A stretch of 64,000 nucleotides of DNA from an uncultured Actinomycetes bacterium (GTDB taxonomy: Bacteria; Actinomycetota; Thermoleophilia; Solirubrobacterales; 70-9): assembly GCA_963716545.1 (NCBI GenBank), contig OY970316.1, positions 1,823,225-1,887,224 of the forward strand, written 5' to 3'. Shown piece by piece: positions 26,890-47,797 of this stretch. A program made the position numbers and the translations under genes. The notes below the pieces were generated by a model. The model was given only the letters and a program-made list of their open reading frames with translations, was not told where the DNA came from and searched no databases. Position 1 is the first letter of the stretch; every line of letters starts with the position of its first letter.

Positions 26890-26922
26890 CCGCATTGCGG
26901 CGAACGACTTAGTACGCCTTGC

Positions 26923-26945: not shown

Positions 26946-26954
26946 TTCTTGGCC

Positions 26955-27317
26955 ATGACGACTGACGGAGCTTCCAAGCAGAAGGGCGGTCGCTCGAACG
27001 ATCCGACCGTGTTGATCCTCACCAGCCTCGCTTCCGAACCGAAGCACGGCTATGCGCTGACTCAGGACATCGAGGAGTTCGCCGCGGTCAGGCTCGGTCC
27101 GGGAACGCTCTATGGGGCGATTTCGCGGCTCGAGGACCGGGGGCTGATCGAGGCGGTGGGGGAGTCGGGACGGCGGCGGCCCTACCGGATCACCGCGGCG
27201 GGGACGGCGGCGCTGCGGGAGGCGCTGGCGGAGATGAGCGCGATCGTCGCCGCCGGCAGCGAGCGCCTCGGGGCGGCCCAGTCTCTCGGCGCCTCTGCTG
27301 CGGGAGCGACGGCATGA
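26955..27317 (+). CDS. PadR family transcriptional regulator
   Basis: LILTSLASEPKHGYALTQDIEEF...LGPGTLYGAISRLEDRGLIEAV...RRPYRITAAG. ATG 26955 is chosen so that the palindrome is upstream (the track starts at 26919). Confidence 0.85.
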   Translation: MTTDGASKQKGGRSNDPTVLILTSLASEPKHGYALTQDIEEFAAVRLGPGTLYGAISRLEDRGLIEAVGESGRRRPYRITAAGTAALREALAEMSAIVAAGSERLGAAQSLGASAAGATA

Positions 27318-29807: not shown

Positions 29808-29921
29808 CGGCGCACCGTGCCCAGTCCGGATTAAACGGAGATGAGATGTCGCGGGCGCTCCCGCCGCGGCCGGGCGCTCTCACTTGGGCTTTAGCCGGCC
29901 CGCCTACCGTCGCCGCCGCGA

Positions 29922-30788
29922 ATGAGCCTCACCACCTCCGTCCGCACCGCCACCGCCCGCCGCTATGCCTTCTCGAAGGTGCCGGAAGTGACCGCCTTCT
30001 TCTGGATCGTCAAGGCCCTGACCACGGCGATGGGGGAGTCGACCTCCGACTTCCTCGTCCACGCGATCGTCCCCGAGGCGGCGGTCCTGCTCGGGGCGAT
30101 CGCCTTCGCGGTCGCCTTCCTGGTCCAGTTCCGCCGGGACCGCTACGTGCCCTGGGCCTACTGGACCGCGGTGGCGATGGTCGGCGTCTTCGGCACGATG
30201 GCCGCCGACGTCCTCCACGTCGGCCTCGGCGTTCCCTATGCCGCCTCGACCGCGCTCTACGCGATCGTCCTCGCCACCGTCTTCGCCTGCTGGCAGCGCA
30301 GCGAGGGGACGCTTTCGATCCACAGCATCGTCACCGCCCGCCGCGAGCTCTTCTACTGGGCCGCCGTCCTCGCCACCTTCGCCCTCGGCACCGCCGCCGG
30401 CGATTTCACCGCCCACACCCTCGGGATCGGCTACTTCGGCTCGATCCTGCTCTTCGCCGCGGTGATCTCCATCCCGGCGATCTCCTGGGCCCGCGGAGCG
30501 ATGGGCTCGGTCCTCGCCTTCTGGTTCGCCTATGTCGTCACCCGTCCGCTCGGGGCCTCGGTCGCCGATTGGCTCTCGGTCTCCCACGCCCGCGGCGGCC
30601 TCGCCCTCGGCACCGGCCCGGTCAGCCTCGCCCTTGCCGCGATCATCGCCGCCTTCGTCGCCTACCTCGCCCGCAGCGGCCGCGACACGCCGCCGGACCA
30701 AGGCCGGCGGGACACCCCGGTCCGGGGCGCCGGCCGGGAGGAGCTCAGCCGTCGGGCCCCGCTGCCGGACGATGGCGTCACGCCCTAG
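29922..30788 (+). CDS. integral membrane protein (COG4705-like, function unknown)
   Basis: 288 aa, about 8 hydrophobic helices. FWIVKALTTAMGESTSDF and FWFAYVVTRPLGASVADW form an internal duplication. Confidence 0.6.
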   Translation: MSLTTSVRTATARRYAFSKVPEVTAFFWIVKALTTAMGESTSDFLVHAIVPEAAVLLGAIAFAVAFLVQFRRDRYVPWAYWTAVAMVGVFGTMAADVLHVGLGVPYAASTALYAIVLATVFACWQRSEGTLSIHSIVTARRELFYWAAVLATFALGTAAGDFTAHTLGIGYFGSILLFAAVISIPAISWARGAMGSVLAFWFAYVVTRPLGASVADWLSVSHARGGLALGTGPVSLALAAIIAAFVAYLARSGRDTPPDQGRRDTPVRGAGREELSRRAPLPDDGVTP

Positions 30789-31930
30789 CCCGGCACCGGC
30801 GCCCCGGCCAGCGCCAGGACCACCCCGACCGCTCCGGCCCCGACCAGGGTCGGGACGACCCCGACCCGCAGGGCCAGCAGCGCCAACGCCGCCGCGGCGA
30901 GGACGGCGAACTGCCAGAGCTCGCTGAGGGCGACCGCGAGTGGGACCGCCGCGCCGAAGATCGCCCCGATCGCCGCCGGCCCGGCACCGTCGAGGAAGCC
31001 ACGGGCGGTGGCGTCGCCGCGCAGGCGCTCGAAGCGACCGCCGCCGAGCAGGATGAACGAGAAGGAGGGGAGGAAGGCGACCAGCGCGGCCAGCAGTCCG
31101 CCGCCGACACCGTGGGCGGCGTAGCCGACGGCGGCGACGGTGGCGACGACCGGGCCGGGCGTGACCTGGCCGAGGGCGACGGCGTTGAGGAATTCGGCGT
31201 TGGTCATCCAGTGGTAGACGTGGACCGCGTCCCCCTGCATCAGCGGCACGATCACGAAGCCGCCGCCGAAGGAGAGGGCGCCGACCTTGAGCGCGGTCCA
31301 GCAGAGCGCGCCGACGCCGCCCGTGGCGACGGCGAAGGGGAGGAGCGCCAGCGGCGCCCCGGCACCGAGTGCCGCGGAGCGCCGGCGCAGCAGCAGCTCG
31401 AAACCGCCGCAGGCGAGCAGGACGAGCACCAGGTAGGGACCGACCACGGCGGCGGCGAGGCCGCCGAGCAGCAGGTAGGCGAACCAGCGTCGCTCCTCGC
31501 GACCGTCCTCGCGAACCAGGGCGAAGCTCGGCCCGACCAGGTCGAGCGCCGCCCGCACCGCGACCGCGGCTACCGCCGCGCCCGCCCCGGCGCCGGCGCC
31601 GCGGACCCAGAGCGGCGGCGCGGCCGAGAGGAAGAGCAGCGACAGCGCCAGCACCATGACGACCGCGGGGACGATGAAGCCGAGCCCGCCGACGATCGCC
31701 CCAGGCCAGCCGGCGAGCCGGTAGGCGCAGAAGATCGCCAGCTGAGTCGAGGAGGGGCCGGGGAGGAGCTGGCAGGCGGCGTTGGCGTCCTCGAAGGCGC
31801 GGGCGTCCATCCAGCCCTCGCGCTCGACGACGAGCTTTCGCAGCAGGGAGATGTGGGCCGGCGGGCCGCCGAAACCGGTGAGGCCGATCCGCGTCCACTC
31901 CGCGGCGACGACTCGCAAGGGTGCCTGCAC
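30785..31930 (-). CDS. chrA: chromate transporter ChrA (CHR family, two-domain form)
   Basis: C-terminal 381 aa of track ORF 30785..32728. FGGPPAHISLL, QLLPGPSSTQL, second repeat SFGGGFVIVPLM, GQVTPGPVV. GTG 31930 start is approximate. Confidence 0.85.
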   Translation of the reverse strand: MQAPLRVVAAEWTRIGLTGFGGPPAHISLLRKLVVEREGWMDARAFEDANAACQLLPGPSSTQLAIFCAYRLAGWPGAIVGGLGFIVPAVVMVLALSLLFLSAAPPLWVRGAGAGAGAAVAAVAVRAALDLVGPSFALVREDGREERRWFAYLLLGGLAAAVVGPYLVLVLLACGGFELLLRRRSAALGAGAPLALLPFAVATGGVGALCWTALKVGALSFGGGFVIVPLMQGDAVHVYHWMTNAEFLNAVALGQVTPGPVVATVAAVGYAAHGVGGGLLAALVAFLPSFSFILLGGGRFERLRGDATARGFLDGAGPAAIGAIFGAAVPLAVALSELWQFAVLAAAALALLALRVGVVPTLVGAGAVGVVLALAGAPVPG

Positions 31931-32053
31931 GGCGGCATCGTAGTGCTCCGTTGGACGGATCGTGGCACCGTCCGGCCGCCTCCGGGACGCCCCGGCAAAA
32001 GAGGAAATTCGCCCCGGCTGGAGGCGTCGTTGGGCGGGTAGTGTGGGCAGCAG

Positions 32054-33313
32054 ATGGCCGCGGGCGTCGACAGCCGCTTCTGGCATCCGTTCTCGAACAT
32101 GGCGGCGACGGCGGCGAACCGCGTCGTCTTCGTCTCCGGCGAGGGCACGCGAATCCGGGACCGCGACGGCAACGAGTACTTCGACGCCGCCGGCGGGCTC
32201 TGGTTCAACGCCGTCGGCCACGGCCGCAAGCGGATCGCCGCGGCGATCGCCGCCCAGGCCGAGACGCTCGCCGCCTGCAGCTGCTTCGACCTCTACGTCT
32301 CCGAGCCGACTCTGGCGGTCGCCGATCGGATCGGCGAGCTGGGTCCGATCCCCGGCGCCAAGGTCTTCCTCACCAGCGGCGGCTCCGACAGCGTCGACAG
32401 CGCCGGCAAGATCATCCGCCGCTGGTTCGCGCTGCGCGGCGAACCGGAGCGGACCGTGATCATCGCCCGCGAGGGCGCCTACCACGGCATGCACGCCTAC
32501 GGCACCTCGCTTGCCGGCATCGCCGGCAACCACGACGGCTGGGGCGAGCTGGTCGGCGATGTCGAGCACATCACGGCCTTCAACGCCGAGGCCCTGGAAG
32601 AGCGGATCCGCCAGCTCGGCGCCAGTCGCGTCGCCGCCTTCTTCGCCGAGCCGGTGATCGGCGCCGGCGGCGTCTTCCCGCCGCCCGAGGGCTACCTGCG
32701 GGCGGTCCGCGAGGTCTGCGACCGCCACGGCGTCCTGCTCGTCTGCGACGAGGTGGTGACCGGGATCGGCCGGCTCGGAAGCTGGAGCGGCAGCGAGCGC
32801 TTCGGCGTCGTCCCCGACCTCGTCCTGCTGGCGAAGATCCTTACCTCCGGCTACCAGCCACTCGGCGCCGTCCTCGTTTCACCCGAGGTGGCGGCGCCGT
32901 TCTTCGAGGGCGAGGGCGCCTGGCTCAAGCACGGCTACACCTACTCCGGCCACGCCACCGCCTGCGCCGCGGCGATGGCCAACCTCGACATCATCGAGGA
33001 GGAGGGCCTGGTCGACCGCGTGGCCGAGCTGGAGCCGGCGCTGCCACGGCTGCTGGGGCCGCTGGCCTCGCTCGACGGGGTCGAAGAGGTACGGGCAATC
33101 GGCCTACTCGCCGGCGTTCAGCTCGACGGCGCCTGGTTCGAGCAGCGGGGGAGGGTGGCTACCGAGGTTCCGGTGCTGCTGCGCGAGCGCGGCCAACTGA
33201 CCCGCCTGCTCGCCTGCGGCGCCTTGCAGTTCTCGCCGCCGTTCGTCAGCGAAGAGGAGGAGATCGGCGCTTTCGCCGACGCCGTCGCCGACGCGCTCGC
33301 TTCACTCGCCTGA
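32054..33313 (+). CDS. class III (omega) aminotransferase, PLP-dependent
   Basis: GGLWFNAVGHG, SGGSDSVDSAGK, EPVIGAGGV, CDEVVTGIGRLG, and the expected PLP-lysine region AKILTSGY. Confidence 0.9.
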   Translation: MAAGVDSRFWHPFSNMAATAANRVVFVSGEGTRIRDRDGNEYFDAAGGLWFNAVGHGRKRIAAAIAAQAETLAACSCFDLYVSEPTLAVADRIGELGPIPGAKVFLTSGGSDSVDSAGKIIRRWFALRGEPERTVIIAREGAYHGMHAYGTSLAGIAGNHDGWGELVGDVEHITAFNAEALEERIRQLGASRVAAFFAEPVIGAGGVFPPPEGYLRAVREVCDRHGVLLVCDEVVTGIGRLGSWSGSERFGVVPDLVLLAKILTSGYQPLGAVLVSPEVAAPFFEGEGAWLKHGYTYSGHATACAAAMANLDIIEEEGLVDRVAELEPALPRLLGPLASLDGVEEVRAIGLLAGVQLDGAWFEQRGRVATEVPVLLRERGQLTRLLACGALQFSPPFVSEEEEIGAFADAVADALASLA

Positions 33314-33355
33314 GACTCCGACAATCGTCCAGCGATGCTCTGGCGCAGAGCAAAT

Positions 33356-33378
33356 CTAAGGCTCGAGTCGAGCCTTAG
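33356..33378. terminator. palindromic hairpin between convergent genes
   Basis: ctaaggctcga-g-tcgagccttag is a near-perfect palindrome, preceded by a second small hairpin gctct-ggcgc-agagc (33337-33351). Confidence 0.5.
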
Positions 33379-33396
33379 AGATGCCCTAGGGGGTGG

Positions 33397-33807
33397 CTAT
33401 GCGGCGCGCGCTTCTGAGGAATCGTCGGCGGCCGCGGGGGGAGGGGGAACCTGAACCGCGTGCAACTCGCCGATCGCCTTCGCGATCACGGTTGCCGGCA
33501 GCCGGTAGAAGTGCTCGGTAGCCCCGCGCACCTGGCGCTCGCGGGCGAGTTCGATCAGGCCGGCTTTGTGCAGCTCGGTGACGTGGTAATTCGTGTTGCT
33601 GAGCGGAATCTGGAGCTCTCGGCAGAGCTCGCTGGGCGACAGGGTCCGGCCCCCGTCGAGCCCGAGGATTTCGAGCACCGAGATCCGCAGCGGGTGAGCG
33701 GTCGCCCGCGCCAGCAGCTCCCAGTCGACTGGCACCGAAACGGGCCGATTTCCAACGGTGCCGCTGGGCCCGTTGCCGTTGGTTGGGGTGGAGTCTTGGG
33801 GGGGCAT
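33397..33807 (-). CDS. ArsR-like winged-helix transcriptional regulator, divergent from the paralog cluster
   Basis: LLARATAHPLRISVLEILGLDGGRTLSPSELCRELQIPLSNTNYHVTELHKAGLIELA. Same family as the regulator at 25797. Confidence 0.7.
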   Translation of the reverse strand: MPPQDSTPTNGNGPSGTVGNRPVSVPVDWELLARATAHPLRISVLEILGLDGGRTLSPSELCRELQIPLSNTNYHVTELHKAGLIELARERQVRGATEHFYRLPATVIAKAIGELHAVQVPPPPAAADDSSEARAA

Positions 33808-33894
33808 GCGGATCAGATTACCAAAAATTATTGACTCAAGTCATCAAAATCGGGTACCGTTCGGATCGAGATGTTTTCCTGGGAGGGAGAGTCA

Positions 33895-36828
33895 ATGGCC
33901 AACAGGCCTCTAGTACGCAGATCGCCCCGCGGGCGGATCACTTTTCTTGCCTTTCTTTGCACCGCGGCCTCGCTGTTCGCCGTCGCCGTGTCGCTGCCGG
34001 CGCTCGCCGCGGCCAACACGGAAGGGATCATCAGCGAACCGTTCAACCCGCACGATCCCCAGGTCAACTCGGGCTGGCAGGCCGGCACCTGCTCGAAAGA
34101 AAAAGCCGAAACCGGCAGCTACTGCTCGGTCGCGACCCCGAATCAGTTCTTCGAACAGGCCGCTGGCCATCCCAACTTCGGCTTCACCCAATTCATCATC
34201 AAGCACACGACGACGGGAACGCCGCCACTCCAATTCGAAACCCCGACCGGCGAACTGAAGACGGTCCGGGTCGATCTTCCGGTCGGCCTCAGCGTCAACC
34301 CCGGGGCGACGATTCAGTGCACCCAGGAAAAATTCGACGCCAACGCCTGCCCGCCCGAATCGGAAGTGGGGGTCAGTGAAGTCACCGTCTCTGTCGGCGG
34401 CATCGTCGTCGGCCCGATCGAGGGGGTCACTTCCGTCCCCGTCTACAACGTCGTCCCCGGGGATGGCGAATCGGCTCGCTTCGGGTTGATGCTGGCCGGC
34501 AAACCGGTCTACCTCGAAGGCGACGTCGATTCGGCCGGCGACTACCACGAGGGGTTCACGATCCACGTGCCGGAAGCGATCCCGGTCGAAATCGGCTCCG
34601 GAGTGATCCTCAAAAACCGCCTCACCTTCAAAGGCCGCGCCGGCGACGGCACCTTCCTCACCACCCCCAGCACCTGCCGCGGTGAAGCCTTCAAAGAATC
34701 GGGCAGCGATTACTCGACCTTCCTGCTCGCCGCCTCGAAGGCCGAAGAAGAATCGGCCGGCTACTCGTTCCCGGGCAGCGCCCAGCCGCCGCTCGAGTCG
34801 CCGATCCCGCCCGGAACCTCGCCAAAGGAATGTGGCTCGATCCCCTACGCGCCGGAAGTCGATGTCGATCCGGGGACGGGGGCGACCAACTCGCCGGCGG
34901 CAGCTTCGGTCGGGGTCACGGTGCCCCACATCAAGAAAGGCAGCGCCCAGGAATCCTCGACGACCAAAGCGGCGACGGTGACGCTGCCCGGCGGGATGGG
35001 CCTCAACCCCTCCGCCGCCAACGGCCTGCAGACCTGCACCGACGCCCAGTTCGGCAAAGGGACGAAGGCCCCGGTCGGCTGTCCGGCGGCCTCGAAGGTC
35101 GGCACGGTGAAGATCGAATCCTTCGCGCTGCCGGAGAAAGAACACCAGCTCGAAGGGACCGTGTACGTCGGCAGCCAGCTCAGCCGCGATCCCGCCTCGG
35201 GCCAGGAGTACCGGATCTTCATCGACGCCGCCTCGCCCCGCTACGGAATCGACCTGCGGCTGGTCGGCAACGTCCGTGCCAACCCCGCAACCGGCCAGCT
35301 GGCGACGACGATCTCGGAAACTCCCCAGCTGCCGTTCAGCTCCTTCGTCCTCAACTTCAACGGCGGCCCCCGCTCGGTGCTGAGCAGCCCGCCGATCTGC
35401 GGTCCGAACCAGACCACGACCTCGCTGCAGCCCTGGTCCGGCAATCCCCCGGCGACGCCGAGCTCGAGCTTCGCGCTGAAAACCCTGCCGGCCGGCGGCA
35501 GCTGCCCGAAGACCTTGGCCGAACGGCCCTTCGCTCCCGGCTTCCTCTTCGGGCCGAAATCGACCGGAGCCGGCGTCTTCACCCCGCTCTCGACGCGGAT
35601 CACCCGTGCCGACGGCCAGCAGGAGCTGAAAGGAATCGAACTGCTGCTGCCGCCCGGGGTCACCGCGAAGCTCGCCGGCATCCCCTATTGCACGGCGGCG
35701 CAGATCGCCGCCGCTGCGGCGAAGAGCGGGGCGGAAGAGGCAAAGACGCCCAGCTGCCCGGCGAAGAGCGAAGTCGGCAAGGCGGCGATCACCGCCGGCA
35801 CCGGTTCGGCCCCCTACGCGATCAGCAACGGGCGGGCTTACCTTGCCGGTCCATATAAAGGCGCGCCGCTCTCGCTGGCCGTCATCACCCCCGCCGTCGC
35901 CGGCCCCTTCGACCTCGGCACCGTGGTCGTCCGCGTCGCCCTCTTCGTCGAACCGGAAACCGCGCAGGTCCGCGCCGTCTCCGATCCGATTCCGGACGTC
36001 TACGGCGGCGCCCAGCTCAGCCTGCGCTCGATCGACCTCACCCTCGACCGCAAGGAATTCAGCCTCAACCCGACCAGCTGCGACCTCTTCCAGGCGACCG
36101 GCGCGGTGCGCGGGGGTGGGGCGGACCCGGCCAACCCGGCCACTTACAGCGCCGCCCCGATCCGCTTCCCGTTCCAGACCACCGGCTGTGACGGCCTGAA
36201 GTTCCGCCCCCAGCTAACCACCAAGGTGCTGGGCGGGAAGAAGAAGCTGCGCCGCGCCGGCCACCCGCGGCTGCAGGCAGTGCTCCGCGCCCGTGCGGGG
36301 GATGCCAACATCGCCCGCGCCGCGCTCACCCTGCCGCACTCGATCTTCCTCGACCAGGCCCACATCGGCACCATCTGCACCCGCCCACAGCTCGCCGCGA
36401 ACAACTGCCCGGCGCGCTCGGTCTACGGCTACGCCAGCGCCAAGTCGCCGCTGCTCGACGACGAACTGAAGGGGCCCGTCTACCTCGTCTCCTCCGACCA
36501 CGAACTGCCGGACCTGCTCGCCGACCTGCAGGGGCAGGTGGACATCCGCCTACGCGGGGTGATCAGCAACACGAAGAAGGGCGAACGGACCAAAACCGTG
36601 TTCGCGACGGTGCCCGACGTCCCCGTCTCCGAATTCCGCCTGACGATGAACGGCGGCAAGCGCGGCCTGCTGGTCAATTCGCGAAACATGTGCGGCAAAC
36701 CGGGCGCCTCCTACCTCAACTTCAGAGGCCAGAACGGCAAGAAGTTGAAGAAGAAGAAACTGAAGCTGCACGTCCCCTCCTGCAAGAAGCACAAGGGCAA
36801 GGGCAAGAAGCATTCGGCCGCCAAGTGA
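33895..36828 (+). CDS. large secreted four-module Cys-patterned protein, paralog A (family not recognised)
   Basis: GGAGGGAG SD before ATG 33895. Signal peptide ...FLAFLCTAASLFAVAVSLPALAAA. 18 Cys in the mature part, in a repeating pattern. Lys-rich C-terminus. Colinear similarity to the next two ORFs. Confidence 0.85.
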   Translation: MANRPLVRRSPRGRITFLAFLCTAASLFAVAVSLPALAAANTEGIISEPFNPHDPQVNSGWQAGTCSKEKAETGSYCSVATPNQFFEQAAGHPNFGFTQFIIKHTTTGTPPLQFETPTGELKTVRVDLPVGLSVNPGATIQCTQEKFDANACPPESEVGVSEVTVSVGGIVVGPIEGVTSVPVYNVVPGDGESARFGLMLAGKPVYLEGDVDSAGDYHEGFTIHVPEAIPVEIGSGVILKNRLTFKGRAGDGTFLTTPSTCRGEAFKESGSDYSTFLLAASKAEEESAGYSFPGSAQPPLESPIPPGTSPKECGSIPYAPEVDVDPGTGATNSPAAASVGVTVPHIKKGSAQESSTTKAATVTLPGGMGLNPSAANGLQTCTDAQFGKGTKAPVGCPAASKVGTVKIESFALPEKEHQLEGTVYVGSQLSRDPASGQEYRIFIDAASPRYGIDLRLVGNVRANPATGQLATTISETPQLPFSSFVLNFNGGPRSVLSSPPICGPNQTTTSLQPWSGNPPATPSSSFALKTLPAGGSCPKTLAERPFAPGFLFGPKSTGAGVFTPLSTRITRADGQQELKGIELLLPPGVTAKLAGIPYCTAAQIAAAAAKSGAEEAKTPSCPAKSEVGKAAITAGTGSAPYAISNGRAYLAGPYKGAPLSLAVITPAVAGPFDLGTVVVRVALFVEPETAQVRAVSDPIPDVYGGAQLSLRSIDLTLDRKEFSLNPTSCDLFQATGAVRGGGADPANPATYSAAPIRFPFQTTGCDGLKFRPQLTTKVLGGKKKLRRAGHPRLQAVLRARAGDANIARAALTLPHSIFLDQAHIGTICTRPQLAANNCPARSVYGYASAKSPLLDDELKGPVYLVSSDHELPDLLADLQGQVDIRLRGVISNTKKGERTKTVFATVPDVPVSEFRLTMNGGKRGLLVNSRNMCGKPGASYLNFRGQNGKKLKKKKLKLHVPSCKKHKGKGKKHSAAK

Positions 36829-36946
36829 GCCACCGCCGGGTGGTTCACGTAGCCGTTGACTGGGTATGCCATTTGGAGCGTCGCCTCTGCGAGCGGGGGC
36901 GGCGCCAAACTTTTATCTGCCACCTGGGGAAGAAGGAGAACGCACA

Positions 36947-39772
36947 GTGAAGAAGCTGGGGATCTCGATTGCCGTCGGCCTGATTACGGTCCTCGGCCTC
37001 GTCGCCGCGCCAGGGGCCAGTGCCGCCTTCGGCGTCAAGTCCTGGGAAGCCGGGACCTGCACGAAAGACATCCCCCAGTGCACGTACCAGAACGACCCGA
37101 GCCAGTTCTTCACCCAGGCCGCGGGGCGGCCCAATGTCGGCCTCACCGACTTCGTCTTCAACACCGACGGCCTCGGCCTCCCGGAAGGGAAGATCAAAAA
37201 CGTCCGGGTCGACTTGCCCGAAGGCCTGAACGTCAATCCGCAGGCCACCGCGCAGTGCCCGAAAGAGACCTTCGAAGCCGGCGCCGCCGGTTGCCCCGCC
37301 GGGAGCCAGGTCGGGGTCAGCGAAGTCACCTCGTTCAGCCTGCTGGAAATCATCCCGGCGCAGCTCTCGCTGCCGGTCTACAACATCGTGCCCGACCAGG
37401 GGCACCCGGCGCTGTTCGGGTTCAGCGTCCCGGTGATCAACAAGAACGTCTACCTGCAGGCCGACATCGCCTGGGCGACCGACTTCCACGAGGGCTTCAC
37501 GATCAGCGACATTCCCAACGAATTGCCGCTGACCGAGAACCGCCTCGTCTTCAACGGCCGCGCCGGCGACGGCACCTTCCTGACCATGGGTAGTGAGTGC
37601 AACGGCCCCTCGACCACGACCCTCGCGGTCGAAAGCTACGAAGAAGCCAAGGATGGGCCGATCCCGACGACCCCGCCGGCGAACATCGACGGTTGCCAGA
37701 AAGTTCCGTTCGCCCCCGGCCTCGACACCGGGGCCGGTGGCGCCACCACCGACACCGCGGCGCCGATCTCCGTCGCGCTCAACGTGCCGCAGGGCCAGGG
37801 CGGCGAACAGCTGAACGACTCGACCGTGAAGCAGGCGCAGGTGACCCTCGCCCGCGGCGTCGGCCTCAACCCGGAAGCGGCGGAAGGGCTCGAAGCCTGC
37901 ACCAACGCCCAGTTCCACGGCGCCCGCGGCGAAACCGCCGCCGTCGCCTGCCCAGCGAAATCGCAGATCGGCACGGTCAAGATCGAAGCGCCGGCGCTGC
38001 CGGCCGGCTCGCTGACCGGCAATGTCTACCTCGGCAACCAGCTCAGCCGCGACCCGACCTCGGGCCAGGAGTTCAGGATCTTCATCGCCGCCGCCTCGTC
38101 CCGCTACGGGGTCGAGGTGCGGCGCGAAGGGCGGATCAGCGCCAACCCGACGACCGGGCAGCTGACCACCACGGTCAGCGAAGCCCCGCAGGTCTCGTTC
38201 AGCTCCTTCCAGCTCAGCTTCGGCGGCGGCCCGACGAAAAAGCTGCCGCTGACCAGCCCGCCCGTCTGCGGCCCGAACACCTCCAGCGGCAAGATCACGC
38301 CCTGGTCCGGTAACGCCGCGGCCTCGCCCTCGACCAACCTGGCGATGAGCAAAGCGCCGGGCGGCGGGCCCTGCGCGAAGACGATGGCGGAACGGCCCTT
38401 CGCTCCGGGCTTCAGCGCCAAACCGGTCTCCGCTAAGGCGCTCGACTACACCCCGTTCCAGCTCAACATCACCCGCAACACCGGTCAGCAGGAGCTGAAG
38501 GGCGTCAACGTGATCCTGCCGCCGGGAGCGACCGCGAAACTCGCCGGCGTCTCCTACTGCACGCCGGTCCAGCTTGCCGCCGCCGCCAACCCCAAACGCT
38601 CCGGCGCCGAAGAGAAGAAAAAAGCGAGCTGCCCGTCCGACAGCGAAGTCGGTGTCGCGACGATCCGCTCCGGCTCCGGCAGCGCGCCGCTGACGATCAA
38701 CGGCAAGGCCTACCTCGCCGGCCCCTACCAGGGCGCACCGCTCTCGCTGGCGGTGGTCACCCCGGCACTCGCCGGCCCCTTCGACCTCGGCAACGTCATC
38801 GTCCGGGTGCCGCTCTTCGTCGATCCGGAAACCGCGCAGATCCATCCGGTGACGACGGCGATCCCCGACGTCTTCGGCGGCGCCAAGCTCGACATCCGCT
38901 CGATCTCGGTCAACGTCAACCGCCCCAACTTCACCCTCAACGGCACCAACTGCTCGCAGTTCGCGACCGAAGGGCTGCTCTACGGCGGCGGCGCCGACCC
39001 GACCAACCCGGCCACGTTCGGCACCGCCAAAGTCGCCGACCCGAGCAAACTTGCCGGCTGCGAAGCGCTCGGCTTCAAGCCGAAGATGAAGCTGCGGACC
39101 TTCGGCGCGACCAAGCGGGCCAAACACCCGAAGCTGCGGGCCGAACTGAAAGCCCGCTCCGGCGACGCCAACCTCAGCCGCGTCTCGGTGGCGCTGCCAC
39201 ACGCGCTCTTCCTCGACCAGGCGAGCCTCAGCGGCGTTTGCACCCGGGTCCAGTACGCCGCGCAGCAGTGCCCGAAGAAATCGATCTACGGCCGCGCTCG
39301 CGCCTTCTCGCCGCTGCTCGGCAAGCCGCTTGAAGGACCGGTCTACCTGCGCTCCTCGAACAACCTGCTGCCGGACATGGTCGCCCACCTCGAAGGCCAG
39401 ATCGACATCGACCTCGACGGCCGCATCGACTCCTTCAAGGGCGGCATCCGGACCACCTTCGACCGCGTCCCCGACGTCCCGGTCGAAAAATTCGTCCTCA
39501 ACCTTCGCGGCGGTAAGCACGGCCTGCTGGTCGCATCCCGCAACCTCTGCGCCAAAAAGCCGATCAAAGCGATCGTTCAGCTGAAAGGCCAGAACGGCAA
39601 GAAGGCCAACAAGCGGGTGAAGCTGAAGTCGCCGTGCCATAAGAAGAAGCACGGCAAGAAGCACAAGCAGGCGGGGGCAAGAAGGGCGGCAAGAAGCACG
39701 CCGCCAAAGGCGCGAAAGGGAAGCGGAGTTAGAACCCAGGTAACCCCGCCGGTCAGGGATCTCGACCCTTGA
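36947..39772 (+). CDS. large secreted four-module Cys-patterned protein, paralog B (3' tail possibly frameshifted)
   Basis: GAAGGAG SD before GTG 36947. Signal VKKLGISIAVGLITVLGLVAAPGASAA. Conserved blocks shared with A and C (e.g. AYLAGPYQGAPLSLAVVTPALAGPFDLGNVIVRV). The alternative frame after the G5 run at 39673-39677 restores a paralog-like tail ending at 39732. Confidence 0.8.
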   Translation: MKKLGISIAVGLITVLGLVAAPGASAAFGVKSWEAGTCTKDIPQCTYQNDPSQFFTQAAGRPNVGLTDFVFNTDGLGLPEGKIKNVRVDLPEGLNVNPQATAQCPKETFEAGAAGCPAGSQVGVSEVTSFSLLEIIPAQLSLPVYNIVPDQGHPALFGFSVPVINKNVYLQADIAWATDFHEGFTISDIPNELPLTENRLVFNGRAGDGTFLTMGSECNGPSTTTLAVESYEEAKDGPIPTTPPANIDGCQKVPFAPGLDTGAGGATTDTAAPISVALNVPQGQGGEQLNDSTVKQAQVTLARGVGLNPEAAEGLEACTNAQFHGARGETAAVACPAKSQIGTVKIEAPALPAGSLTGNVYLGNQLSRDPTSGQEFRIFIAAASSRYGVEVRREGRISANPTTGQLTTTVSEAPQVSFSSFQLSFGGGPTKKLPLTSPPVCGPNTSSGKITPWSGNAAASPSTNLAMSKAPGGGPCAKTMAERPFAPGFSAKPVSAKALDYTPFQLNITRNTGQQELKGVNVILPPGATAKLAGVSYCTPVQLAAAANPKRSGAEEKKKASCPSDSEVGVATIRSGSGSAPLTINGKAYLAGPYQGAPLSLAVVTPALAGPFDLGNVIVRVPLFVDPETAQIHPVTTAIPDVFGGAKLDIRSISVNVNRPNFTLNGTNCSQFATEGLLYGGGADPTNPATFGTAKVADPSKLAGCEALGFKPKMKLRTFGATKRAKHPKLRAELKARSGDANLSRVSVALPHALFLDQASLSGVCTRVQYAAQQCPKKSIYGRARAFSPLLGKPLEGPVYLRSSNNLLPDMVAHLEGQIDIDLDGRIDSFKGGIRTTFDRVPDVPVEKFVLNLRGGKHGLLVASRNLCAKKPIKAIVQLKGQNGKKANKRVKLKSPCHKKKHGKKHKQAGARRAARSTPPKARKGSGVRTQVTPPVRDLDP

Positions 39773-39879
39773 TCACTTGCTCTCCGCCGCATCGAAGGTC
39801 TAAGGTCCGTGTTGGGAGAGGGAATACGACGCCTTGCAGGGGCGGCGTAAAGCTGGATTAGGGGAACAAGGAGGAGTTG

Positions 39880-42867
39880 ATGGTAAGGCGCTCGATCGTG
39901 GTGCTGATGCTGTGTCTGGGGACTCTGTTCGCGATGTCAGCGTCCGCTTGGGCGGACACCGGCGACATCGTCGAAAAACAGAACGAACCGCCGACGAACG
40001 CCGACGGCTGGCAGGCCGGAACCTGCTTCGCCAACGAACCGGTGGCGGGAGTGAAGTGCGGCCCGAACACCGGCGCGGCCTTCTTCAAACAGGCCGGCGG
40101 GCATCCCCCGATCGGCTTCACCCAGTACATCATCCAGCACGAACCAATCACCGAAGCTCCACTCGAACTCGCGAACGGAACGCAAGTCCCGGTGGAAACC
40201 AAAGTCACGTCGATCAAAGAACCGGTCGAGGACCGCGACATCAAAACGCTGCGCGTCGACCTTCCCCCCGGCGAGACCGTCAACCCCAACGCCTTGCCGA
40301 AGTGCCCGGTCGCGACCTTTGAAGCCGGCGGCTGTCCAGAAGCCTCGCAAACCGGCGAAGAGGAAGTCACGGTCATCACCACCGTGCCGCACGCCGTTCA
40401 CGTCCCCGGCACCACCGAACCGGAACTCTTCCTGCCGAAAGGCGCGATCGTGCCGCCGACCCCCGGTCTGACCAAAGTCCCGGTCTACAACCTCGAGCCG
40501 CGTCCCGGTGAACCGGCTCTGTTCGGCTTCATCGCCGCCGGCAAAAAAGTGTTCCTGGAAACCGAGGTCGCCTGGGAGAGCGATTTCCACGAGAGCTTCC
40601 GGATCAAACTGGAACCGTCGGCGCCGCCGTTCGAAACGCTGATCAGCCGTCTGGTCAGCTTCGGCGACAACAAAACCGGCAACGGCACCTACATCAACAA
40701 CCCGACCACCTGTGAAGACCCGAACACGTTCCCGGACCTCTACTCGACCTGGTTCCGGGCCGAGTCCTACGGCGAACCGAACCCCACCTTCCCGCTCGGT
40801 TCGACCGCGCTAGAGGCAAAGGTGGAGGAAACGAACGGAGGCACGGGCACGCTGGTCCAGCAGACCGGCTGCGACAAAGTCCCGTTCACCCCAGGTGTGA
40901 AAACGACCCCCGGCACCGGCGCGATCGATTCGCCGGCCCCGGCCACGGTCGAGACCACGCTCAAATACCTGACCGGCGATGAAAGCGCCGTCCAGGAGTC
41001 CCACCTGAAGAAGGCGGTGCTCACCCTGCCGGCCGGCATGGGCCTCAACCCCTCCGGGGCGAACGGCCTGGTCGCCTGCACCGACGCCCAGTTCAAGAAG
41101 GGTCAGCGCGTCGAAACGAACGAATGCCCGCCCGACTCGCGGGTCGGCAGCGTCGAAATCGATTCGCCGCCGCTTTCGAAAACGCTCACCGGCCAGGTCT
41201 ACGTCGGCGAACCGAAGAGCACCAATCCCGAATCCGGCGAAGAGTTCCGGATCCTGCTCGAAGCCAAGGATGAAAAACAGGGCATCGACGTCCGCCTCGT
41301 TGGCAACGTCAAAGCCAACGCGACCACGGGTCAGCTGACCGCCGTGTTCAACGAAAAAGAGATCGGCGAATTCGCCGGAGCGTTGCCAGAAGGCCTGCCC
41401 CAGGTCCCGTTCACCTCGGTCCGGGTCAAATTCGACGGGCCGCGGTCCGTCCTGACCAGCCCGCCGACCTGTGCGGCGGCCGAAACCACGGGCCAGATGG
41501 AACCGTGGGCGCGGCCCGGCACGACGACTCCGGTGAGCGACAAGTTCAATCTCACCGGCGACCCAGGTGGCGGTGCCTGCCCGACCACGTTGGCCGGCCG
41601 CAAGTTCGCCCCCGGCTACTCGGCGAAGGTCGACAACAGCACGGCTGGCGCCTACAGCCCGTTCCGGGTCGCGATCACGCGTCCGGACGGACAGCAGGAG
41701 CTGAAGGTCGTCAACGTGACCCTGCCCAAGGGGCTGACCGGCAAGCTCGCCGGGGTCCCCTACTGCTCCGACGCGGCGATCGCTGCCGCTGCGGCTGCAA
41801 CGGGCAAGGCCGAGCAGGTCAGTCCGAGTTGCCCGACCGCCAGTCGCATCGGCGGCGTGCAGACGATCTCCGGCACCGGGGCGAACCCGCTCCGCCTGCC
41901 GGGCAGTGCGTATCTGGCGGGTCCCTACAAGGGCGCGCCGATCTCGCTGGTGACGATCGTCCCGGCGGTTGCCGGGCCGTATGACCTCGGCACCGTGGTC
42001 GTCCGGGTGGCGCTCAACGTCAATCCGGAAACCGCTCAGATCAACGCCGTGTCCGACCTGATCCCCGACGTGTTCGGAGGGGTGAAGCTGGACATTCGCT
42101 CGATTCTCGTCAACGTCGACAAGCCGGCGTTCATGAAGAACCCGACGAATTGCGCCTCCCAGGCGACGACGGGCACGATCAACGGCGGGGGCGCCGATCC
42201 GGCCAATCCGGCGGCGTTCAGCACCTACGCGGTCACCTCGCCGTTCGCGGCGGTGAACTGCAACGCGTTGAAGTTCAAGCCGAAGTTCGTTGCTCAGATC
42301 TTCGGCCCGACCAAGCGCGCCAAGTTCCCCCGCATCAAGGTCACCGTCAAGGCGAAGGAAGGTGAAGCCAACTTCGAACGGACGGCTCTCACCCTGCCGC
42401 ACTCGCTGTTCCTCGAACAGAGCCACATCCGCACCGTCTGCACCCGGGTGCAGCTGGCGGCCGCGGCCTGTCCGAAGGGGTCTGTCTACGGCCACGCCGA
42501 AGCCATCACCCCGCTGCTCGACGGCAAGTTGAAGGGGCCGGTCTACCTGGTCTCCTCGACGCACAAGTTGCCGGACCTCTTGGTCAACCTGCGCGGCCAG
42601 ATCCCGATCCGGCTCCGCGGCGTGATCAGCTCCAAGAATGGCGGTCTGAAGACCGTCTTCAACGGACTGCCGGACGTCCCGGTGAAGAAGTTCGTGCTGA
42701 ACATGTCGGGTGGCAAGAAGAGCCTGTTGGTCAACTCGACCAACACCTGTCAGAAGCCGCAGCGCGCCGTCCTGAAGCAGAAGGGCCAGAACGGCAAGAA
42801 GGCGAACAACAACAAGTTCAAGTTGAACGTCGTCAGCTGCAAGGGCAAGAAGAAGGGCAAGAAGTAG
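39880..42867 (+). CDS. large secreted four-module Cys-patterned protein, paralog C
   Basis: AGGAGG SD before ATG 39880. Signal MVRRSIVVLMLCLGTLFAMSASAWA. Same module order and Cys pattern. Tail ...VVSCKGKKKGKK. Confidence 0.85.
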   Translation: MVRRSIVVLMLCLGTLFAMSASAWADTGDIVEKQNEPPTNADGWQAGTCFANEPVAGVKCGPNTGAAFFKQAGGHPPIGFTQYIIQHEPITEAPLELANGTQVPVETKVTSIKEPVEDRDIKTLRVDLPPGETVNPNALPKCPVATFEAGGCPEASQTGEEEVTVITTVPHAVHVPGTTEPELFLPKGAIVPPTPGLTKVPVYNLEPRPGEPALFGFIAAGKKVFLETEVAWESDFHESFRIKLEPSAPPFETLISRLVSFGDNKTGNGTYINNPTTCEDPNTFPDLYSTWFRAESYGEPNPTFPLGSTALEAKVEETNGGTGTLVQQTGCDKVPFTPGVKTTPGTGAIDSPAPATVETTLKYLTGDESAVQESHLKKAVLTLPAGMGLNPSGANGLVACTDAQFKKGQRVETNECPPDSRVGSVEIDSPPLSKTLTGQVYVGEPKSTNPESGEEFRILLEAKDEKQGIDVRLVGNVKANATTGQLTAVFNEKEIGEFAGALPEGLPQVPFTSVRVKFDGPRSVLTSPPTCAAAETTGQMEPWARPGTTTPVSDKFNLTGDPGGGACPTTLAGRKFAPGYSAKVDNSTAGAYSPFRVAITRPDGQQELKVVNVTLPKGLTGKLAGVPYCSDAAIAAAAAATGKAEQVSPSCPTASRIGGVQTISGTGANPLRLPGSAYLAGPYKGAPISLVTIVPAVAGPYDLGTVVVRVALNVNPETAQINAVSDLIPDVFGGVKLDIRSILVNVDKPAFMKNPTNCASQATTGTINGGGADPANPAAFSTYAVTSPFAAVNCNALKFKPKFVAQIFGPTKRAKFPRIKVTVKAKEGEANFERTALTLPHSLFLEQSHIRTVCTRVQLAAAACPKGSVYGHAEAITPLLDGKLKGPVYLVSSTHKLPDLLVNLRGQIPIRLRGVISSKNGGLKTVFNGLPDVPVKKFVLNMSGGKKSLLVNSTNTCQKPQRAVLKQKGQNGKKANNNKFKLNVVSCKGKKKGKK

Positions 42868-42887
42868 CGCGACGGGTCTAGCGAGGC

Positions 42888-42925
42888 GCACCGGCGCGGA
42901 GGGCGAATACCCTCCGCGCCGGTGC
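42888..42925 (+). terminator. strong hairpin (16-bp perfect stem) after the third paralog
   Basis: gcaccggcgcggaggg-cgaata-ccctccgcgccggtgc. There is no U-tract. The 3' arm contains the GTG start of the GT2 gene. Confidence 0.6.
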
Positions 42926-43950
42926 GTCCCTCGCTCTCAGTCCTGATCGTCGCCTGGAACAGCCGCGAGGAGCTCTCGCGGACGTTGCCGGCGCTGCTGC
43001 CGGAGCTGGGGGAGGACGACGAGCTGATCGTCGTCGACAACGACTCCCCCGACGATTCCGTCGCCGTCGCCGAAGGGCTGGCGCCGCGGGCGCGGATCGT
43101 GCGGATGGGGCGGAACGTCGGCTTCACCGGGGGGGTGAACGCCGCAGCCGCCGCCGCAACCGGCGAGCTGCTGGTCACCCTCAACCCCGACGCGATGCCG
43201 CGGCCGGGCTGGGGCAAGGCGATCCGCGCTCCCTGGCGCGAGGGCCGTGGCTGGGCGGCCTGGCAGGCGCTGGTGACCGAGGCGGGGGGGACCGAGATCA
43301 ACTCCGCCGGTAACCCGGTCCACTTCACCGGCATCGTCTGGGCCGGCCGCCACGGCGAGCCGCTCGCCGACGCCCCCACCGAGCCGACCGAGGTGCCAGT
43401 CCTCTCTGGCGCCTGCCTGGCGATCCCGCGGTCGACCTGGGACGACCTCGGCGGCTTCCCCGCGCACTTCTTCATGTACCACGAGGACGTCGACCTCTCG
43501 CTCCGCCTCCGCCTCCGCGGCGGCACCCTGGGAATCGAACCCGCGGCCGTGGTCGAGCACGACTACGACTTCGCCGGCTCCACCCAAAAGTGGCGCTGGC
43601 TGGAGCGCAACCGCCTAGCCACCCTCACCCGCCTCTGGCCAACCCCCCTCCTGATCCTCCTCGCCCCCGTCCTCCTCGCCACCGAGCTAGCCCTCCTAGG
43701 GGTCGCCTCCCGGGGCGGCTGGCGTAGCCAAAAGCGCCTAGCCAACCAAGACTTCGCCCGCTCCCTCCCCCGCCTCCTCCGCGAACGCCGCACCATCCGC
43801 CGCCACCGCCGCATCAGCCCCGCGGAGTTCGCCTCGACCCTGACGGCCGACCTGGACTCACCTTTCATCGCTCCGGCCGCCCGCTCCGCGCCAGCCCGCC
43901 TCCTCCTCCGCACCTACTGGCGAGTAGTCCGAGTCCTCCTGGGCCCGTAG
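42922..43950 (+). CDS. family 2 glycosyltransferase (WbbL/rhamnosyltransferase-like)
   Basis: SVLIVAWNSREEL, VVDNDSPDDS (DxD region), RMGRNVGFTGGVNAA, LNPDAMPRPGW, FFMYHEDVDLSLRL. Confidence 0.85.
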   Translation: MRPSLSVLIVAWNSREELSRTLPALLPELGEDDELIVVDNDSPDDSVAVAEGLAPRARIVRMGRNVGFTGGVNAAAAAATGELLVTLNPDAMPRPGWGKAIRAPWREGRGWAAWQALVTEAGGTEINSAGNPVHFTGIVWAGRHGEPLADAPTEPTEVPVLSGACLAIPRSTWDDLGGFPAHFFMYHEDVDLSLRLRLRGGTLGIEPAAVVEHDYDFAGSTQKWRWLERNRLATLTRLWPTPLLILLAPVLLATELALLGVASRGGWRSQKRLANQDFARSLPRLLRERRTIRRHRRISPAEFASTLTADLDSPFIAPAARSAPARLLLRTYWRVVRVLLGP

Positions 43951-44055
43951 CGGGAGCCGGGATCACTCCCCCGGAGGCTCAAGCGGGACTCGCCCGAGCC
44001 CAGGCGGCTCGCCCAGCTGCGCGACGGTCTCCGGGGGAGTGATCCCGGCTCCCGC
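43950..44055. repeat. long inverted repeat: 27-bp perfect stem with a 52-nt loop
   Basis: gcgggagccgggatcactcccccggag (43950-43976) is the exact reverse complement of 44029-44055. It lies between the convergent GT2 and SDR genes. It shares its GCGGGAG...CTCCCGC termini with the repeat at 14964-15082. Confidence 0.75.
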
Positions 44056-44076
44056 CCGTCCCAATGAGAGAGCGAA

Positions 44077-44781
44077 CTACCCCGGCTGCCCAGCCGGCCG
44101 GATGAGGATCTCACCCACATCGACGTTAGCCGGCTGCTCCAGCGCGTACATCACGGCCCGGGCGATGTCCTCGTCCTGCAGGGCCCACTCGCCGGGGCGA
44201 TTGTCGAAGAAGGGCGTGTCGACCATCCCCGGCTCGATCAGCGTCACCCTGATCGCGTTGTTCTCGTGGGTCTGGCGGAGCTCGGCGCGGAGGTTCTGGC
44301 CGATCGCCGTCGCCGCCCACTTGGTCGCCCCGTAGAGCGAGCCCGGCATCGTGATTCGGCCGGCGATCGAGCTGGTGATCACGTAGTGGCCGGTGCCGCG
44401 CTCGAGCAGGTGGGGGAGGGTGGAGCGGATCGTCAGCGCCGGGCCGAGGACGTTGGTCAGGACCATCGAGCGCCAGTGCTCGACCGACTCCTCGAGGAAG
44501 CCGCGGCCGGCGCCGAAGCCGGCGTTGGCGAAGACCGCATCGATCCGGCCGAAGCGCTCCAGCGCCGCCGCCGTCATCGCCTCGACCTGGTCCCACTCGG
44601 CGACGTCGCAGCGGACCGCCAACGCGCGCTCGTCGCCACCCAGCTCCGCCGCCAGTTCCTCCAGCTTCTCGACGCTGCGGGCGGCGAGGACGAGGCGGTA
44701 GTCGTTGGAGGCGGCGCGCGCGGTGGCGGCGCCGATGCCGCTGGAGGCACCGGTGATCAGAAGTACGGGGTCGTCGGCCAT
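44077..44781 (-). CDS. short-chain dehydrogenase/reductase (SDR)
   Basis: C-terminal 234 aa of track ORF 44077..45333. ITGASSGIG, NAGFG, S...YGATK catalytic pattern. Confidence 0.9.
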   Translation of the reverse strand: MADDPVLLITGASSGIGAATARAASNDYRLVLAARSVEKLEELAAELGGDERALAVRCDVAEWDQVEAMTAAALERFGRIDAVFANAGFGAGRGFLEESVEHWRSMVLTNVLGPALTIRSTLPHLLERGTGHYVITSSIAGRITMPGSLYGATKWAATAIGQNLRAELRQTHENNAIRVTLIEPGMVDTPFFDNRPGEWALQDEDIARAVMYALEQPANVDVGEILIRPAGQPG

Positions 44782-44844
44782 GGCGGGGATTCTCGCAGGC
44801 GCAATGAGGCCGTGTCGCAGGAGTGCGATAATTCCGGCCGTCGT

Positions 44845-45238
44845 ATGGACCCCTCGCGCAAGCGAAAGATTCGGCTGGTCGTGGCGCTCAGCGTTGCCGT
44901 CCTCCTGGCGGTGGCGTTGATCTACACCTCCTTCTCGGCTTCGACCGAGGCGAAGGAGCCGTCCGAACTCACTACCGCCGCGGCCGGCACCACCGCCGAC
45001 CTGACCGGCAAGGTCGTCACCGGGTCGATCCGGCACGAAGGGAACGGCATCGCCTTCAAGGTCGTCGACCGCGATGGCCACGGCGCCCAGCTTCCCGTCA
45101 CCTACCACGGCACCATCCCGGACCCGTTCCGCGGCGGCCGCGAGATTGTCCTGACCGGCGCGATGAAGGAGGGCACCTTCGTCGGCGAACCGGAAACCCT
45201 GATCACCAAGTGCCCGTCGAAGTTCACCACGCAAAGCA

Positions 45239-45246
<8 letters not shown>
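44845..45246 (+). CDS. ccmE: cytochrome c maturation heme chaperone CcmE, Cys-type variant
   Basis: Tail of track ORF 44266..45246. N-terminal TM anchor IRLVVALSVAVLLAVALIY, OB-fold core (VTYHGTIPDPFRGGREIVLTG). The C-terminal motif is KCPSKF where canonical CcmE has HxxxY. Confidence 0.85.

Positions 45247-47797
<2,551 letters not shown>

Follow-up and report, generated by a model that had tools for sequence, protein, structure and literature searches.

The window analysed here is a stretch of 64,000 nucleotides of contig OY970316.1 from an uncultured actinomycete of the order Solirubrobacterales, and around its middle lie three co-directional paralogous genes, referred to below as A, B and C. 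They are preceded by a divergently oriented gene for a winged helix–turn–helix (wHTH) regulator and followed by a gene for a family 2 glycosyltransferase (GT2) (Table 1). An original prediction, which had only the DNA to go on, described a tandem triplication of genes for giant secreted proteins with a common cysteine pattern, and proposed a possibly glycosylated, S-layer-like or adhesive envelope system restricted to this lineage. Few soil Actinomycetota are as abundant as the Solirubrobacterales, or as rarely cultured, and their cell surface is almost undescribed; a conserved and apparently regulated triad of this kind offers a testable entry point to their envelope. Here we report that A, B and C form an ancient cassette and belong to a large family for which we found no curated model, solved structure or paper, and we discuss what their products might do.

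Table 1 Features of the cassette and other genes of the window (module, signal peptide, cap and tail limits, and the promoter/operator core, are predictions)
Feature	Position	Strand	Remark
wHTH regulator	33397–33807	−	136 aa; HTH_20/MarR_2/ArsR-like; divergent from gene A
Divergent promoter/operator core	33814–33860		consensus reading
Gene A	33895–36828	+	977 aa
Gene A, signal peptide	33895–34008	+	aa 1–38
Gene A, N-terminal cap		+	with GWQAGTC...C predicted disulfide
Gene A, module M1	34249–34851	+	
Gene A, module M2	34852–35532	+	
Gene A, module M3	35533–36210	+	
Gene A, module M4	36211–36789	+	
Gene A, polybasic tail	36790–36825	+	
Gene B	36947–39772	+	941 aa
Gene C	39880–42867	+	995 aa
Long GC-rich hairpin	42879–42937	+	~26-bp stem
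GT2	42922–43950	+	342 aa; one C-terminal hydrophobic segment
Second HTH_20/HTH_5 regulator	25728–26402	+	related to cassette wHTH
PadR regulator	26919–27317	+	
Two unannotated probable membrane proteins	27314–28225, 28252–29214		downstream of the HTH_20/HTH_5 and PadR regulators
DUF347 membrane protein	29922–30788	+	real gene under shadow reading frame
Chromate transporter	30785–32728	−	real gene under shadow reading frame
Lactonase/PD40-type beta-propeller protein	50459–51940	−	493 aa; unrelated to cassette
LexA repressor	52780–53616	+	unrelated to cassette

The gene cassette and its putative control regions

Genes A, B and C each start behind a good Shine–Dalgarno (SD) sequence (contexts GGGAGGGAGAGTCA-ATG for A, GAAGGAGAACGCACA-GTG for B and AAGGAGGAGTTG-ATG for C), and they are separated by gaps of 118 nt (A–B) and 107 nt (B–C). 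The reading frames, starts, lengths, signal peptides and short gaps of the original prediction are all borne out; the word ‘giant’ is overstated for products of ~100 kDa. Long spurious open reading frames (ORFs) are abundant in high-GC genomes, and one of them lies in the window itself (29801–32041), which lends some colour to the idea that the three reading frames are duplicates in decay or without function, or else shadow ORFs such as a GC-rich genome produces. This idea, which the original prediction had itself raised in the form of pseudogene decay, is refuted by the present results and retains next to no probability. The G+C content at third codon positions (GC3) is 0.86–0.88 in the three genes, with a coding-type pattern over all three positions (GC1/2/3), and the ratio of nonsynonymous to synonymous substitution rates (dN/dS) against the closest relative is 0.23–0.30 (0.27 for gene B against locus L085), for which reasons the genes are not pseudogenes. 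Intact orthologs moreover occur in 68 loci, the family numbers more than 3,700 homologs, and the Cys and motif columns of its alignment are invariant.

Among GTDB species representatives, 363 stretches match two peptide patterns specific to protein A, and the best 80 of these were analysed as loci; all 80 come from metagenome-assembled genomes (MAGs) of Solirubrobacterales or Actinomycetota, several on chromosomes of 2.5–2.9 Mb. The order of a wHTH gene on the minus strand, three family genes and a GT2 gene is near-universal, with three full copies in 68 of 82 loci. When the positional genes of other genomes are compared with those of the window, position 1 finds its best match in A (67 of 67), position 2 in B (63 of 67) and position 3 in C (66 of 67), and this positional orthology implies that the triplication is older than the diversification of the clade and that three lineages have been kept apart. 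The tandem triplication is thus no recent duplication but an ancient fixed triad of lineages that are orthologous in 67 species-level genomes, and the cassette is an ancient, vertically inherited feature of the Solirubrobacterales. Individual loci show variations on this arrangement: L075 has a divergent B, and in one subclade a gene of ~765–800 aa with a signal peptide lies between B and C (L024 8073–10367, L081 7479–9812, L057 13742–16105 and L079 13871–16279), the copies scanned (L024 and L081) matching Peptidase_S15/PepX_C (CocE/NonD type).

The wHTH gene is directly upstream of and divergent from the first family gene in essentially all 80 related loci, whereas the genes further upstream vary; none of the 80 loci scanned has the aminotransferase gene that lies upstream in the window, and the closest relative, L085, is the only one to share it. 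This constant adjacency against a changing background argues that the regulator is a genuine part of the cassette, as its divergent placement had first suggested. Its HTH_20-type domain is recognised by Pfam models PF12840 (E = 2e-11, 44.1 bits against a cut-off of 27) and PF12802 (34.9 bits, cut-off 27), and the NCBIfam metalloregulator model NF033788 scores 27 bits, below its cut-off of 55. The metal site of ArsR/SmtB proteins is the alpha-3 motif CVC; the helix of the cassette regulator reads ELCREL, with a single Cys, and neither the alpha-3 CVC nor an alpha-5 metal-sensor motif was found in it. The protein therefore resembles the divergent autoregulators of the ArsR/SmtB–MarR type in its HTH_20 domain, its small size and a divergent dyad that overlaps promoters, but differs from ArsR/SmtB members in this helix and in its likely target, an operon of structural-type proteins.

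The region between the wHTH gene and gene A contains a core with the consensus GAnATTACCAAAAAwTATTGACTCAnGTCATCAAAATCGGGTAGnnT, most positions of which are at least 90% conserved over 56 loci. It includes a predicted promoter for gene A, made up of a −35 element TTGACT (33831–33836), an 18-nt spacer and a −10 element TACCGT (33855–33860); 72 of 81 loci have the corresponding pattern TTGAyn-N15-17-GGTAnnnT, where shuffling predicts 0.1, and between 33000 and 44500 of the window it is met a single time. The minus strand of the window carries TGGTAATCT 7 nt ahead of the wHTH ATG, and the start codon, seen as CAT, lies 8–9 nt from ATTACC in 30 of the 35 loci that carry ATTACCAAAA. On the other strand this element reads TGGTAAT, and its position so near the start of the gene suggests a leaderless mRNA for the regulator. 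A TGACT-CA-AGTCA dyad overlaps the predicted −35 element, and a perfect TGAC-N4-GTCA dyad is found in 27 of 81 loci against 0.3 expected. From this conservation we infer that the core acts as a back-to-back promoter and operator.

Gene C is followed by a hairpin with a minimum free energy (MFE) of −68.6 kcal/mol (z = −7.9), a value that none of 200 shuffled sequences attained. The same asymmetry is seen across 67 loci, where the median MFE of the first 100 nt is −52.9 after the third gene and −36.6 and −30.8 after the first and second. A 12-bp core of the stem is kept in 60 of 62 loci, with G–U wobbles and three pairs with compensatory change, and the loop is near-invariant in relatives (AATAGCCT; AATACCCT in the window). 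No U-tract directly follows the stem, which continues into CUCAGUCCUGAUCG; a terminator scan did not list the hairpin, and it has no Rfam match, nor did Rfam return anything real over 33000–44500. Terminators without such a tail are common in Actinomycetota, and the hairpin is the probable end of the A–B–C transcription unit; it may combine a terminator with a leaderless promoter or a translation gate. The strong hairpin and the GT2 start inside it (GTG at 42922, in the 3′ arm) are as originally described. The claim that no other strong hairpin is present needs a qualification: a GC stem of 12 bp with CUUUUAU behind it lies in the A–B spacer, although this spacer as a whole folds no better than shuffled sequences.

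The GT2 protein is a generic member of its class: it matches PF00535 (E = 6.5e-20, 72.2 bits against a cut-off of 23.3) and contains VVDNDSPDD and HEDVD, and its best NCBIfam score is far under every cut-off. The original prediction linked it to glycosylation of the three proteins, and the expanded claim that GT2 glycosylates A, B and C, so that the locus would be a dedicated surface-glycoprotein system, can point to the presence of GT2 after the cassette in nearly all loci and to a C-terminal hydrophobic segment that fits membrane association. We nevertheless consider this claim improbable. A conserved strong hairpin lies between C and GT2, the start codon of GT2 is buried in it, and the gene has no SD sequence. 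A conserved TAnnnT lies 8 nt before its GTG, within the loop (TACCCT in the window, TAGCCT in relatives), and suggests a leaderless transcript of its own. The conserved hairpin, the missing SD and the loop TAnnnT together lead us to regard GT2 as a unit of its own that is probably leaderless. Downstream of it, in the window (~44077–47797) as well as in L001 and L085, there follow a conserved short-chain dehydrogenase (SDR) gene on the minus strand and then ccmE and ccmF of system I cytochrome c maturation, which indicates that the adjacency of GT2 belongs to a larger syntenic block. GT2 keeps with this block, and more distant family members have other neighbours with neither an HTH_20 nor a GT2 gene adjoining. 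Its membership in the cassette is thus doubtful. System I is not the usual pathway of cytochrome c maturation in Actinomycetota; in L001, ccmH and a thioredoxin-like gene lie on the opposite side of the cassette. A read-through fusion of C and GT2 was considered, as the two share a frame with a single stop in many loci, and rejected: the frame is not constant, and a GC-rich spacer of 54 nt rarely holds stops.

Protein architecture and the wider family

Proteins A, B and C align over their full length with 51–53% pairwise identity and 18 invariant Cys columns, in agreement with the colinearity first noted, and all motif blocks quoted at the time recur, with SWEAGTC and LEGPVYL variants in protein B. 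They share a layout of signal peptide, N-terminal cap, four modules and a Lys/Arg/His-rich tail after the last Cys. Protein B follows the architecture of A with a longer, basic and Pro-rich C-terminal extension, and protein C adds insertions in M1 and M2 and ends in ...CKGKKKGKK. When the alignment was cut at the linkers and the pieces compared by hhalign, probabilities of 97% (M2–M4), 95% (M2–M3), 92% (M1–M2) and 81% (M1–M3) were obtained, values that cover four of the six module pairs; these matches indicate that the body consists of four homologous modules of ~200–225 aa.

The cysteines follow the same periodicity. Eighteen are invariant in an alignment of 30 family members, and each of four repeats has a short pair C-x9-21-C after ‘LPxGxxxNP’ and a longer pair just before a P(F/Y)xP linker; the N-terminal cap contributes a further pair (GWQAGTC...C). 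Across 481 domains of divergent relatives, 15 of the 16 module cysteines are conserved at 95–100% and C261 at 70%, and the cap pair is confined to proteins of the A/B/C type. Each protein contains 18–19 Cys and has an isoelectric point (pI) of 8.7–9.4, or 6.9–9.0 without signal peptide and tail.

Signal peptides and membrane spans were assigned by our own heuristics. The N-termini of A, B and C display a basic n-region, a hydrophobic core and an AxA-type site, and a signal-peptide-like N-terminus is present in 96 of 120 close relatives and 107 of 118 relatives with an NHL propeller. Neither a C-terminal LPXTG motif nor a membrane span beyond the signal peptide was found in A, B or C, as originally stated, the sole LPxT-like match (protein B, aa 433) being internal. 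An LPxTG in the last 60 residues is likewise absent from all 120 close relatives, LPXTG is absent from the 118 NHL-type relatives, and an internal or C-terminal transmembrane-like segment was seen in 1 of the 120 and 24 of the 118. At least eight Lys or Arg among the last 30 residues are found in 97.5% of the 120 close A/B/C-like relatives and ~70% of more distant subfamilies. The exported, extracellular character first proposed is consistent with the signal peptides, nine conserved Cys pairs and the fn3, Ig and NHL heads of relatives described below. As a minor point, many position-1 orthologs (P0003–P0023 and others) end in ...(D/A)TKSG-COOH after the polybasic stretch, an ending that protein A of the window (...HSAAK) does not have.

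Database searches returned no confident homology to a characterised family, and the original view that the proteins carry no recognised Pfam-type signature stands: A, B and C have no match in Pfam, NCBIfam, PADLOC or PHROGs (for Pfam and NCBIfam none at E ≤1). A sub-threshold match of rib_alpha to protein C (16 bits against a cut-off of 35) was judged to be chance. Sequence searches of the PDB with a single protein and with a 30-sequence profile yielded nothing real, OSCP and pectate lyase appearing at E ≥0.018. In the searchable literature on surface proteins, S-layers and cell envelopes of Solirubrobacterales and Thermoleophilia we found no description of the family or of an S-layer.

An AlphaFold2 model of protein A (pLDDT 78, pTM 0.62) is nearly all beta. 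Its Foldseek neighbours in the PDB are generic strings of beta-sandwiches (TM-score ≤0.19 whether normalised to query or target length, identity 8–11%) and include the legs of integrin alpha-V, the SafDAA pilus, MG domains of complement C3 and C5, mastigonemes and a membrane-anchored protein of C. diphtheriae, whereas in BFVD a DUF11 protein ranks best, accompanied by fn3-type phage fibres. Module M2 modelled alone (pLDDT 70) has about ten strands and no PDB match better than E = 0.03; the p53/p73 core heads the list, and at this modest pLDDT the weaker matches to Cnm N2, ACE19 and RrgA have E = 0.16–0.55 and TM-scores of 0.28–0.48 (the better of the query- and target-normalised values). The module as modelled is a beta-sandwich for which no solved homolog could be identified.

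The family extends well beyond the cassette. Besides the more than 3,700 homologs found by a word-indexed search, of which the best 120 are 940–1,024 aa long, 62–100% identical and all named ‘hypothetical protein’, an exhaustive profile search of 1.84 billion cluster representatives (clusters counted at 50% identity) detected 8,421 clusters at E ≤1e-3 and 3,166 at E ≤1e-30. Taxonomy was read from the record titles of the best 120–150 matches listed. The named homologs among the best 120 all come from Solirubrobacterales MAGs, and the named family members among the matches listed are all Solirubrobacterales or Actinomycetota, in keeping with the lineage restriction originally proposed. Many relatives bear N-terminal extensions of 200–800 aa with fn3, Ig_2 or DUF11 domains outside the family body; a large subfamily of 1,400–1,600 aa places an NHL propeller and fn3 ahead of the same body, and in giants of 3,400–7,161 aa profile positions ~296–730 are repeated up to 16 times. 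One NHL-type member probably stems from the same genome as an A–B–C cassette, and several copies of the family per genome are likely.

Two loci illustrate the surroundings of such distant members. In another Actinomycetota MAG, two adjoining multi-repeat members of 2,112 and 3,420 aa (L084 3670–20263) are divergent from mreB–mreC–mreD and a penicillin-binding protein gene. In L082 (5418–15480) the NHL/fn3-headed P0160 follows three unannotated genes of ~233 aa and a gene of 736 aa, and is flanked by a convergent gene for a YkuD L,D-transpeptidase with a Big_10 domain.

A proposed role and its rivals

We propose that A, B and C are Sec-exported, disulfide-stabilised envelope stalks of four modules that are held by their basic tails and build a scaffold under wHTH control, a proposal to which we give about even chances. 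The three genes would probably be transcribed from one conserved promoter as far as the conserved hairpin, and the wHTH protein would bind the dyad-containing core over the two back-to-back promoters and thereby control both itself and the A–B–C operon. Each product would be exported by the Sec route and its signal peptide removed, whereupon oxidative folding outside the cell may produce an elongated, rigid body of four beta-sandwich modules. Each module would be stapled by two disulfides, one closing the short C-x9-21-C loop after LPxGxxxNP and the other closing the module before P(F/Y)xP, with the cap and its further disulfide at one end and the Lys/Arg/His-rich tail at the other. The polybasic tail is envisaged to hold the stalk non-covalently on the anionic envelope, be it wall polymers or membrane, and the N-terminal end would face outward, as suggested by the paralogs that carry NHL, fn3 or Ig heads N-terminally on the same body. 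A, B and C would then be non-redundant versions of one stalk that together form a structural or adhesive surface scaffold.

Several observations weigh against this proposal or limit it. The moderate pLDDT values (78 for the full protein, 70 for the module) and the weak TM-scores and E-values make the fold assignment generic, and the predicted disulfide pairing was deduced from the periodicity of the cysteines and not from model coordinates. Binding to DNA, exopolysaccharide or mineral surfaces would suit the basic tail just as well, and so would a role in sorting as a signal. The terminator-like stem in the A–B spacer means that A, B and C may differ in expression level. In L010, L013 and L032, and also in L075 with its divergent B, only A and B are present, GT2 follows directly and C is absent from the cassette, and the lack of C in at least three species makes an obligate A/B/C complex unlikely; an obligate heterotrimer, which had been considered as a candidate, is weakened by the same loss. 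Finally, no other gene of the neighbourhood evolves as fast as A, B and C, whose median identity to orthologs is 55–62%, compared to 68% for GT2 and 72% for wHTH (66–72 loci each), and 72% for SDR (9 loci) and 77% for CcmF (3 loci) in the loci whose flanks reach them. Fast divergence is common for surface proteins.

Among known proteins, A, B and C would work most like the multi-domain beta-sandwich surface proteins of Gram-positive bacteria. With the MSCRAMM-type adhesins represented by Cnm N2, ACE19 and RrgA they would share export and an elongated series of tandem Ig-like beta-sandwiches, which in the adhesins carry distal ligand-binding parts; they differ in having no sequence homology to them (fold E ≥0.16), no LPXTG or transmembrane anchor, larger modules (~200–225 aa) with two predicted disulfides each, and a polybasic C-terminus. 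DUF11/TIGR01451 and fn3/Ig-repeat proteins are likewise repetitive extracellular beta-sandwich proteins, and the best BFVD neighbour is one of them, but A, B and C have no match to these profiles at E ≤1 and the domains are confined to the N-terminal extensions of relatives. The likeness to integrin alpha legs and to the MG domains of complement and alpha-2-macroglobulin (A2M), the top full-length Foldseek matches, is one of domain class only (TM-score ≤0.18, identity 8–11%). A, B and C contain no thioester CGEQ, a C..Q being absent from A and restricted to the non-conserved sites B-45 and C-758; they have no A2M or MG Pfam domain, and Foldseek gives TM-scores of ≤0.11 for alpha-2-macroglobulin/complement matches. 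The proteins fail the tests for known classes by S-layer domains and composition, LPXTG, thioester/A2M, and Big, fn3 and DUF11 profiles.

The S-layer-like label of the original prediction fares poorly in this respect. S-layer proteins are typically Cys-poor and usually acidic, in contrast to the 18–19 Cys and pI of 8.7–9.4 observed here, and Pfam and NCBIfam reveal no SLH, CWB2 or other anchoring or lattice domain in A, B or C. A true S-layer, that is, a self-assembling two-dimensional lattice of A/B/C subunits, would account for large, exported, beta-rich products, a near-consensus, deeply conserved predicted promoter and the occurrence of the cassette across the order, and a basic wall-binding region is known for S-layer proteins of the Lactobacillus type. 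With these and the SLH-type S-layers the proposed stalks would have in common an exported envelope location and an electrostatic, non-covalent attachment to the wall, here through the tail; they stand apart in being Cys-rich, in occurring as three fixed paralogs and in belonging to a family with variable heads and multi-repeat giants. In paralogs the body bears NHL, fn3 or Ig heads or recurs as many as 16 times, which looks like a stalk and not like a lattice unit; no literature report of an S-layer was found for this order, and we consider the lattice distinctly unlikely. Still less probable, and in our estimation very much so, is that A, B and C polymerise into an appendage akin to a pilus or fibre, of which they would provide the major, minor and tip subunits. 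Three non-redundant paralogs in a fixed order would suit such an assembly, and the Saf pilus, the RrgA pilus adhesin and the membrane-anchored protein of C. diphtheriae are weakly similar in fold. These folds are however generic (full-length TM-score ≤0.19; for the RrgA module TM-score ≤0.28, with module-level E ≥0.16), neither LPXTG, pilin motif, sortase, chaperone–usher nor assembly gene was found near the cassette, and C is dispensable in some species.

A more serious rival, albeit one that we hold to be rather unlikely, is that the proteins are released and serve as matrix or binding proteins whose tails attach to extracellular DNA, acidic exopolysaccharide or the mineral and organic surfaces of soil, possibly together with secreted hydrolases in nutrient capture. 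The polybasic tails and the lack of a covalent or membrane anchor speak for release, as do the secreted Peptidase_S15/PepX_C-type hydrolase gene between B and C in the subclade of L024, L057, L079 and L081 and the resemblance of the relatives’ NHL propellers and fn3 domains to those of extracellular enzymes. The present data fit retention at the envelope equally, the hydrolase insertion is limited to a few loci, and the consistent position of the variable heads at the N-terminal end and of the tail at the C-terminal end suggests a fixed polarity relative to a site of attachment.

Envelope stalks held by basic tails therefore remain our preferred explanation. The term ‘system’ used in the original prediction goes beyond the evidence, which comprises a regulator and three paralogous structural-type genes. 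What emerges is a new family and module, possibly with a new mode of anchoring, among the exported, repetitive surface proteins already familiar as a class, and the evidence does not point to an unprecedented mechanism. There is a domain family to be defined, together with a candidate anchoring signal and a conserved putative promoter/operator for a dedicated regulator. If stalk and tail are confirmed, they would explain how NHL, fn3 and Ig heads are displayed on the surface in this order; if they are not, a large family deserving a curated model is still at hand. A bolder extension, for which the chances are in our view slim, is that body and tail constitute an undescribed, order-wide surface-display chassis of the Solirubrobacterales and that the A/B(/C) triad is the core of a new envelope layer. 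Tail attachment would then be a new anchoring principle for monoderm Actinomycetota, electrostatic or even covalent, and by analogy with Braun’s lipoprotein the tail lysines could be linked to peptidoglycan by L,D-transpeptidases. The NHL-type relative P0160 has a YkuD gene beside it.

Other genes of the window

The 746-aa ORF at 29801–32041 on the plus strand was examined as a possible part of a larger locus and discarded. It is unrelated to the 736-aa neighbour of the distant relative in L082 and is a shadow ORF that encodes Arg/Pro-rich nonsense over two real genes, those of the DUF347 membrane protein and the chromate transporter. Ahead of these lie the second HTH_20/HTH_5 regulator and the PadR regulator with the two probable membrane proteins, and on the far side of the cassette are the genes for the lactonase/PD40-type beta-propeller protein and LexA (Table 1).

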